Positions 14,901 to 17,900 of a stretch of DNA of 64,000 nt are shown piece by piece. The position numbers were made by a program. This stretch comes from Escherichia coli (GTDB taxonomy: Bacteria; Pseudomonadota; Gammaproteobacteria; Enterobacterales; Enterobacteriaceae): the NCBI RefSeq assembly GCF_965641715.1, contig NZ_OZ282453.1. One strand, 5' to 3'. The number at the start of each line of letters is the position of its first letter. Positions within the stretch are counted from its first letter, which is position 1.

Positions 14901-17900
14901 GCGGACGATTGAGCGCCGCCGCAACGTGCATCAGGCCAGAATCGTTAGTGACAATGGCTTTACAGGCTGCAATCAGGATAACCGCTTGATCAAGCTGTGT
15001 TTCCCCCGCCAGGTTCCGACACCATGCCTGCTGCTCGGTATTCAAAGCGGCAAGAATCTCATTGCCCGCTTCATGATCTTTCGCCGAGCCAAACAGAACC
15101 ACCTGATAACCTTCATCAATCAGCTGCTTTGCCAGCTCCGCATAGTGGTAGTGTGGCCAGCGTTTTGCCGGACCAAACTCCGCACCCGGGCAAAAACCAA
15201 TCATCGGACGTTCTGATGAAAGCGAAAATTGATTACAGGTATATGATTTTTCACCTTCGCTCACCTGCAATTGCGGCCATAACAACGGTTTTGGTAGATC
15301 TTGTGCGGTACGCATCACGCCTTTGTCATAGGCCAGCGCGACATAGCGTTCCACCATTAGCGGCCAGGCTTCTTTATCGAGCACGCGTACATCGTTGAGT
15401 AAACCGTAGCGCATCTCGCCGCGCCAGCCGGTGCGATGAGGAATACCCGCGAAGAAAGGCACTAATGCAGATTTGAAGGAGTTGGGTAAGACGTAGGCGC
15501 GGTCGTAGCGCTTTTCACGCAGGCTATGACCCAGTTTGCGGCGTTCGCCGATTTCCAGCGCTCCGTGACCGAGAGGCATAGGAATAGCTTCGTTAACTTC
15601 CGGCATCCGCGATAATAATGGACGGCACCATGCCGGTGCCATCACATCGATTATCGCCTGGGGATAGCGCGCCTGGAGCGTGCGATAGAGACTTTGCGAC
15701 ATCATCATGTCGCCAACCCAAGACGGGCCGATCACCAGTATTTTCATGCAGAGCTCTTATGCGTCGCGATTCAGCCAGGCCATGTATTCCGTTACACCTT
15801 CAGCAACGGTTTTGAACGGTTTGTCGTAACCCGCCGCGCGCAGATTTGTCAGATCTGCCTGAGTGAACGCCTGGTAGCGGCCTTTCAGTTTATCCGGGAA
15901 CGGAATGTATTCGATCTGGCCTTTCTTGTGATAAGCCAGAGTAGCATCTGCTACGGCCTGGAAGGATTCCGCACGACCGGTGCCGAGGTTGAAGATGCCG
16001 GAAACGCCATTTTCCAGGAACCACAGGTTTACATCTGCCACGTCGCCCACATAGACGAAGTCACGTTTGAAGTTCTCGCTACCTTCGAACAGTTTTGGCG
16101 ATTCACCGTTGTTAAGCTGGGTGTTGAGATGGAAAGCGACGCTCGCCATGCTGCCTTTATGGCCTTCACGCGGTCCATAAACGTTGAAATAACGGAATCC
16201 AACAATCTGCGAGTTCGCTTCAGGCAGGATTTGACGAACATATTCATCAAACAGGAATTTTGAGTAACCGTAGACGTTCAACGGTTTTTCGTACTCGCGG
16301 GATTCAATAAAGTCGGAGGTGCGTCCGCCGTAGGTGGCCGCGGAAGATGCATATAGGAACGGGATTTCGCGCTCCAGACAGTAGTGCAGCAGCTCTTTGG
16401 AGTATTGATAGTTGTTATCCATCATATACTTGCCATCCCACTCGGTGGTGGAAGAGCATGCGCCTTCGTGGAAAATCGCTTCGACATCGCCGAACTCTTC
16501 GCCAGCCATAATCTGGATCAGGAAGTCTTCCTTATCCATATAGTCCGCGATATCCAGATCCACCAGGTTCACAAACTTGGTGCCGTCTTTCAGGTTGTCC
16601 ACCACCAGAATATCGGTGATGCCTTTATCATTCAGGGCTTTAACGATGTTGCTGCCGATAAAGCCCGCGCCGCCGGTAACGATGATCATAACTGTAACCT
16701 TCGAATTATGGAGTCAGAGACAATCTCAGACACGAATACTTCTATCATATCACTACACGGCGTTGGCTTCAGCCATTCGCCAAAAGTGAGATTGATGGAC
16801 GTTATTTATCCTGAATTTTGCAGAAGTGTTAACGCGTCATCTCGTCGCGACCTATAAGTTTGGGTAATATGTGCTGGAATTTGCCCTGTCTGGAGAATCG
16901 CAATGCGTGGAGAATTTTATCAGCAGTTAACCAACGATCTGGAAACCGCACGGGCGGAAGGGTTGTTTAAAGAAGAGCGCATTATTACGTCTGCGCAGCA
17001 AGCAGATATCACTGTGGCTGATGGAAGCCACGTCATTAACTTTTGTGCCAATAACTATCTCGGGCTGGCGAATCATCCGGATCTGATTGCGGCGGCAAAG
17101 GCGGGAATGGATTCTCACGGTTTCGGCATGGCTTCGGTGCGTTTTATTTGCGGCACTCAGGACAGCCATAAAGAGCTTGAACAAAAACTGGCGGCATTCC
17201 TGGGGATGGAAGATGCGATTCTCTACTCTTCCTGCTTTGATGCTAACGGTGGCCTGTTTGAAACGCTGCTGGGCGCGGAAGACGCCATTATCTCCGACGC
17301 ACTGAACCACGCGTCTATTATTGATGGTGTGCGTCTGTGTAAAGCTAAACGCTATCGCTATGCCAACAACGATATGCAGGAGCTGGAAGCACGTCTGAAA
17401 GAAGCGCGTGAAGCCGGTGCGCGTCATGTGTTGATTGCCACCGATGGTGTGTTCTCGATGGACGGCGTGATTGCCAATCTGAAGGGCGTTTGCGATCTGG
17501 CAGATAAATACGATGCCCTGGTGATGGTAGACGACTCCCACGCGGTCGGTTTTGTCGGTGAAAATGGTCGTGGTTCCCATGAATACTGCGATGTGATGGG
17601 GCGTGTCGACATCATCACCGGCACGCTTGGTAAAGCGCTGGGCGGGGCTTCTGGTGGTTATACCGCAGCGCGCAAAGAAGTGGTTGAGTGGCTGCGCCAG
17701 CGTTCTCGTCCGTATCTGTTCTCCAACTCGCTGGCACCGGCCATTGTTGCCGCATCCATCAAAGTGCTGGAGATGGTCGAAGCGGGTAGCGAGCTGCGTG
17801 ATCGTCTGTGGGCGAACGCGCGTCAGTTCCGTGAGCAAATGTCGGCGGCGGGCTTTACCCTGGCGGGAGCCGATCACGCCATTATTCCGGTCATGCTTGG

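Follow-up and report, generated by a model that had tools for sequence, protein, structure and literature searches.

The 213-bp spacer that separates hldD from kbl in the 64-kb stretch of Escherichia coli DNA analysed here (the window) is very probably the ancestral, unoccupied form of this region, and K-12 together with about a third of E. coli carries a horizontally acquired htrL cassette of about 1.2 kb. The evidence consists of gene identities, breakpoints, population frequencies, outgroup states and base composition. The initial annotation had stated that htrL (yibB), located between kbl and hldD in K-12, is missing here and that only about 210 bp, at 16690-16902, separates the two genes. 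This holds: no HtrL-like open reading frame is found in the interval, its coordinates are right, and K-12 does have htrL at this position, the DH10B annotation being rfaD, yibB, kbl. The start codons of rfaD and kbl lie 1435 bp apart in the DH10B annotation, so that K-12 does not share the short intergenic region. The statement that the window differs from K-12 is likewise correct as a comparison, but K-12 appears to be the deviant with an insertion and the window not, as the short form is present in 64% of complete E. coli genomes and in most of the outgroups sampled. A search of the entire 64 kb with K-12 HtrL (tblastn) returned no homologue (best E = 0.087), and the 1283-bp segment found in K-12 at this site gave no blastn match in the window. 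No member of the HtrL_YibB family (Pfam PF09612) is encoded there; i.e., the PF09612 gene between hldD and kbl that marks the htrL-bearing, K-12-type haplotype is lacking, and the properties of the short haplotype are present: 213 bp free of genes, contiguous in other E. coli and with a centre orthologous to that of outgroups.

The genes on either side are readily identified (Table 1). HldD of the window has 100% amino acid identity to K-12 RfaD and is encoded by the first gene of the hldD-waaF-waaC operon, whereas kbl and tdh form an operon in the other direction; the start codons of hldD and kbl point apart with no intervening gene. Further to the left, at 11365-13647 (+), a GT2-family glycosyltransferase (327 aa) and a 417-aa open reading frame are located on the strand opposite to waaC, and the latter is an O-antigen ligase by annotation in close relatives. 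As these two reading frames are opposite to waaC, the hldD operon of the window consists of hldD-waaF-waaC only. Judged from gene content, and not by comparison with a reference R1 sequence, the waa layout appears R1-like, and this is presumably the first difference from K-12 to which the initial annotation added the absence of htrL as a second one.

Table 1. Features of the hldD/kbl region in window coordinates; promoter and leader signals are predictions.
Feature	Coordinates	Strand	Remarks
waaC	13717-14697	-	left of hldD, beyond waaF
waaF	14701-15747	-	left of hldD
hldD (rfaD/gmhD), ADP-glyceromanno-heptose 6-epimerase	15757..16689	-	NCBIfam NF008360, 677 bits vs cutoff 452
Divergent hldD/kbl spacer without htrL	16690..16902		exactly 213 bp, read directly from the sequence
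Candidate hldD Shine-Dalgarno AAGG	16698..16701	-	placed by position; A/G-rich block 8 nt upstream of ATG, conserved, 71 aligned loci
Stem-loop in hldD 5' UTR	16713..16731	-	GUCUGAGA-UUG-UCUCUGAC; identical in K-12
Predicted hldD transcription start, A	16737	-	placed from the -10, 7 nt after it; near-invariant A in the alignment
Segment replaced in K-12 by 1283 bp (htrL cassette)	16738..16798		61 bp; breakpoints from the K-12 alignment
Predicted hldD extended -10	16744..16752	-	TGATATGAT; from conservation
Candidate hldD -35 region, weak	16767..16774	-	block GGCTGAAG, 17 nt upstream of the -10; putative function
Conserved block ACGTTATTTATCCTG	16799..16813	+	consensus CGTGATTTATGCTG; right-hand junction of the htrL cassette in K-12 and Ag1
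Conserved block CATCTCGT	16838-16845	+	upstream of kbl
Conserved block TTTGGGTAATATGTGC	16859..16874	+	holds candidate kbl -10 TAATAT at 16865-16870; conserved in 15 genera
kbl Shine-Dalgarno GGAG	16892..16895	+	block CTGGAGAAT invariant in the multi-genus alignment
kbl, glycine C-acetyltransferase	16903..18099	+	NCBIfam equivalog TIGR01822, 747 bits
tdh, L-threonine 3-dehydrogenase (kbl-tdh operon)	18109..19134	+	NCBIfam NF003808, 648 bits
waaH	19373-20407		after tdh

In K-12 (b3617-b3619) the order and orientation of hldD, kbl, tdh and waaH are those of the window and the proteins are 99-100% identical; the annotated order in DH10B is rfaD, yibB (858 bp, in the direction of kbl), kbl, tdh, waaH. 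Positions 16590-16737 of the window are 100% identical to 1570-1717 of the K-12 locus (L001), and 16799-17002 are 99.5% identical to L001 3001-3204. Immediately in front of the start codons, 48 bp on the hldD side and 104 bp on the kbl side are the same in both strains, and the difference between the two strains is a replacement, 61 bp in the window against 1283 bp in K-12, accompanied in K-12 by a diverged hldD promoter allele. The K-12 segment has a G+C content of 36%, compared to 50% for the window, 51% for hldD and 54% for kbl. It is made up of htrL, 255 bp in front of the gene and 170 bp behind it, and the part behind the gene contains a hairpin followed by a T-run that resembles an intrinsic terminator. 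K-12 HtrL matches PF09612 only (436 bits). LPS/LOS loci with members of this family are found in Acinetobacter, Salmonella and Campylobacter (PMC4172580), and the label "involved in LPS biosynthesis" is, as far as found, annotation and not an assayed activity. For K-12, H-NS binding and divergent constitutive promoters are listed for the htrL-hldD spacer (PMC3946193), in keeping with AT-rich DNA of foreign origin.

The two forms divide the species between them. A 1001-bp junction query was searched against 5426 complete E. coli genomes, and the short form was scored when at least 80% of the query was covered in one piece. The query matched 5424 of the 5426 genomes; the match was contiguous in 3465 (64%; best identity 99.8%) and broken in two at the junction in the remaining matching genomes. 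The K-12 1283-bp segment was found in 1959 genomes (36%), always on the chromosome and always annotated as yibB. As 3465 and 1959 add up to the 5424 matched genomes this is a clean two-state polymorphism in which the window carries the majority state, and a third form of the spacer was not seen at this sensitivity among the 5426 complete genomes. Strains without htrL include C43(DE3) and ATCC 25922, while K-12, O157:H7 and O111:H8 have it. Variable presence of htrL/yibB has also been recorded in a pan-genome association study of urinary E. coli (PMC8303582). One class of E. coli, with strain 51008369SK1 (L003 5410-6390) and about 480 genomes in the 90-95% identity band, has the short spacer with only about 92% identity in the hldD/kbl junction region; in L003 it comes with a longer annotated rfaD (981 bp) and a cluster containing waaZ and rfaL. 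This class looks like a divergent haplotype that covers the whole region and is probably recombinant.

It could be argued that the absence of htrL and the R1/R4-like waaL on the opposite strand form one linked package that arose in a single event, and the initial annotation had counted the missing gene as a further difference at the edge of the waa cluster. It is indeed a second difference from K-12 at this edge, but the tie between the two is weak, as both htrL states are found in both waaL classes. In a sample of 60 rows, taken at even steps down the ranking obtained with a 4.9-kb query from the window waaL to kbl, the window type of waaL (R1/R4-like, opposite strand to waaC) was found 18 times without and two times with htrL, and other waaL types 19 times without and 20 times with it. 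There is, therefore, a partial association, and yet all four combinations exist: the genome at L003 has a waaZ and rfaL cluster (R2/K-12-like) in the hldD operon and nevertheless the short spacer, and strain PKF8 (L004) has an R1-like waaL with an htrL-type junction. About 3.5 kb of conserved hldD-waaF-waaC, moreover, separates the two sites. As a simple part of an R1 core package the absence of htrL is ruled out by the occurrence of all four combinations, a single event behind both differences is unlikely, and the observations describe a loose link in which htrL state and core type are associated but separable. In PKF8 (L004 4233-5175) an IS1 element is located 218 bp into the htrL-type segment and the strain has lost htrL, kbl, tdh and most of waaH, which makes it a natural kbl-tdh null.

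The ancestral state of the spacer is best judged from related species. Eighty loci around HldD homologues in species-representative genomes, picked by HldD similarity and not an exhaustive set, were screened with HldD, WaaF, HtrL, Kbl, Tdh and WaaH. kbl adjoins hldD in about 60 Enterobacterales species, and in most of these the start of kbl is about 213-245 bp away from hldD, on the other strand, and an HtrL homologue is lacking. This arrangement with kbl beside hldD extends over Escherichia albertii, Citrobacter, Enterobacter, Kluyvera, Pantoea, Erwinia, Pectobacterium, Dickeya, Yersinia, Serratia, Rahnella, Photorhabdus, Proteus and Providencia. E. albertii agrees exactly with the window in spacer length (213 bp), and Citrobacter, Enterobacter, Kluyvera and others have 214-217 bp. 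Over the whole spacer, the 61 bp missing from K-12 included, identity to the window is 93% in E. albertii, 83-84% in Citrobacter, 76% in Enterobacter cloacae and about 70% in Pseudescherichia. Enterobacterales spacers of the window's kind (213-217 bp) are free of genes and share the extended -10 and the blocks GGCTGAAG, CGTGATTTATGCTG, CATCTCGT and TTTGGGTAATATGTGC, and those of E. albertii, Citrobacter and Enterobacter differ from the window by sequence drift only. Longer spacers were found in four exceptions, i.e., 'Enterobacter' sp. Ag1, Citrobacter youngae, a Plesiomonas metagenome-assembled genome (MAG) and Xenorhabdus mauleonii. As the outgroup spacers are short and align with that of the window from end to end, the short form would be ancestral and htrL would have been gained in K-12; the direction of the event is in this way read from sequence comparison.

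The opposite direction, a loss of htrL from the lineage of the window through deletion or through recombination that put the short-form allele of another strain in its place, is improbable. Both states coexist in E. coli and within both waaL classes, so allele exchange clearly occurs, the near-identical flanks of the two forms would ease replacement, and the IS1-mediated deletion of htrL-kbl-tdh in PKF8 demonstrates that losses happen. A simple deletion, however, cannot recreate 61 bp orthologous to E. albertii and Citrobacter, and no remnant of the cassette is left in the window. Following allelic replacement, the allele now carried would be the ancestral one anyway. That the short spacer is an artefact of assembly or sampling, collapsed or mis-joined, is refuted by the same contiguous sequence in 3465 independent complete genomes (up to 99.8% identity over 1 kb) and by an identical 213-bp spacer in one GTDB representative genome (L006).

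Gain of the cassette in K-12 and its relatives, the reading preferred here, would involve a unit of low G+C content comprising htrL/yibB, its own upstream region and a terminator, inserted into the poorly conserved centre of the spacer between the core promoters of hldD and kbl. In the multi-genus alignment conserved blocks are found at both ends of the spacer, and the poorly conserved centre extends roughly from 16777 to 16798. The K-12 segment begins with about 45 bp that form a diverged counterpart of window positions 16738-16776, with about 60% of positions matching, and that retain ATCATA and CTTCAGCC. As this counterpart is kept in K-12, the event would be a true insertion into the variable centre that left both core promoter regions in place. 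The promoter-proximal piece of K-12 scores higher in local alignment against Ag1 (28), Pseudescherichia vulneris (26) and Kluyvera (23) than against the window and E. albertii (11-13), so that the hldD promoter allele of K-12 looks foreign, and the cassette would have brought this allele along. In 'Enterobacter' sp. Ag1, which groups with Cedecea by HldD identity, the spacer (L028 4562-6000) holds an HtrL with 81% amino acid identity to that of K-12 at the same left and right junctions. The hldD-side flank of Ag1 is Escherichia-like, unlike that of Cedecea neteri, and its kbl-side flank is Cedecea-like. The mixed flanks of Ag1 and the resemblance of the K-12 allele to sequences outside Escherichia point to transfer of the cassette between genera through recombination in the flanks. 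The cassette probably arrived, and probably spreads among strains and even among genera, by homologous recombination in the conserved flanking sequences, a route deduced from these patterns. No target-site duplication, terminal repeat or mobile-element end was recognised on reading the junction sequences, and IS1 was seen only in the unrelated strain PKF8.

A search of plasmid and phage records for htrL gave no genuine plasmid or phage copy. One match labelled as plasmid was rejected as a vector since a record of 4.9 Mb can only be a chromosome. Two 'Campylobacter phage' records (MG065686.1 25436-26290 and MG065691.1 147833-148687) encode a product 100% identical to K-12 HtrL and most likely represent contaminating or chimeric E. 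coli DNA, and homologues in two Xanthomonas jumbo phages are just 25% identical.

The same central zone is occupied by other genes elsewhere. In C. youngae (L074 4552-5703) it holds a gene for a 383-aa GT4 glycosyltransferase (PF00534, PF13439) of 40% G+C, around which both flanking promoter blocks are intact, and in the Plesiomonas MAG it holds a TetR-like open reading frame. The position of the GT4 gene suggests that the spacer centre is a recurrent docking site for LPS accessory genes. Variable genes that flank polysaccharide loci, such as the waa core types and O-antigen clusters, are likewise low-G+C cargo between conserved housekeeping genes, and here too the cargo varies by taxon (htrL in E. 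coli and Ag1, GT4 in C. youngae). Unlike these clusters, the cargo between hldD and kbl is a single-gene cassette inside a promoter spacer.

The description of the spacer as a divergent promoter region is supported across the Enterobacterales by the near-invariant predicted extended -10 of hldD and by the conserved blocks upstream of kbl. Of 71 Enterobacterales loci, 68 have the pattern TGnTAT(G/T)AT, the positions of which are nearly invariant, and CTTCAGCC is conserved in most Enterobacteriaceae spacers and retained in the occupied forms of K-12, Ag1 and C. youngae. The predicted start of hldD transcription at 16737 coincides with the end of K-12 identity (breakpoint 16737/16738), and all blocks on the kbl side are identical in K-12. 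The block ACGTTATTTATCCTG, located upstream of the kbl promoter, may be a site for a regulator. Assignment of the promoters to hldD and kbl is a prediction from conservation. According to this prediction hldD-waaF-waaC in the window would be transcribed leftward from the extended -10 at 16744-16752 with a structured leader, and kbl-tdh rightward from a promoter around 16865, with nothing between the two. A scan for consensus sigma-70 promoters and terminators over 16600-17000 returned no sites; it is silent at the extended -10 of hldD because the -35 is weak. A literature search on the kbl-tdh Lrp promoter gave no match. According to reviews, transcription of the gmhD(htrM)-waaFC operon increases at high temperature (PMC8745692).

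The predicted hldD leader (16690-16737, about 48-50 nt) contains a putative hairpin a few bases after the predicted start. K-12 has the same hairpin as the window, and the hairpin is not involved in the htrL difference. Folding of individual sequences gave a hairpin at the same place in most loci of Enterobacteriaceae, Erwiniaceae, Pectobacteriaceae and Yersiniaceae with differing stems, e.g., CUGAGA/UCUCAG, CCGGG/CCCGG, CCCUGG/CCAGGG, GUGAAAC/GUUUCAC and GUGGGGC/GCCCCAC. A covariance model built from 18 sequences recovered 42 loci. In the resulting alignment, which is fitted to the model and thereby favours the structure, 88% of cells pair compared to 69% in shuffles, and compensatory changes are seen at all seven of the seven pairs. 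The covariation score is 0.547 against 0.225 for shuffled alignments, of which none in 500 reached 0.547, and slid partners score 0.03-0.22. Compensatory conservation in this model-fitted alignment covers Enterobacteriaceae and Erwiniaceae. In the raw MAFFT alignment of 71 leaders the stems are misaligned, and for this reason RNAalifold gave no pairs for it; an Rfam scan (E up to 10) found no family in 16690-16902 and gave three chance hits (E >= 0.49), all within the hldD coding sequence. The conservation of the hairpin is thus good but not final evidence for a structured element. The hairpin is weakest in E. coli (-6.4 kcal/mol, with one U-U mismatch), and Photorhabdus, Proteus and Providencia, whose leaders are shorter, lack it.

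In substance the polymorphism of htrL is not new, and accessory-gene variation of this kind is known. What appears modestly new in the present comparison of sequences is the exact position of the junctions, the foreign-looking hldD promoter allele linked to htrL, the apparent reuse of the site in other genera and the covarying leader hairpin. It is tempting to speculate further that the spacer centre is a docking site used across genera for single LPS genes, that a foreign hldD promoter allele travels with the cargo and alters regulation of hldD-waaFC, and that the leader hairpin is an undescribed cis-acting RNA element, e.g., an mRNA stabiliser or a temperature-responsive structure; taken as a whole we consider this possible but tentative. 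If true, strains with and without htrL would differ not only in this gene but also in regulation of the heptose operon hldD-waaFC.

For E. coli, K-12 is not the default here, as the reference strain carries extra DNA at this position, although this carries little weight for biology at large. In work on LPS it should be kept in mind that about two thirds of complete E. coli genomes are without htrL and that core type cannot be read from its absence. Where htrL is present, the sequence upstream of the hldD -10 differs as well, and this could affect expression of the heptose pathway. The hldD leader hairpin, finally, is a small lead, open to testing, on how inner-core synthesis may be controlled after transcription.
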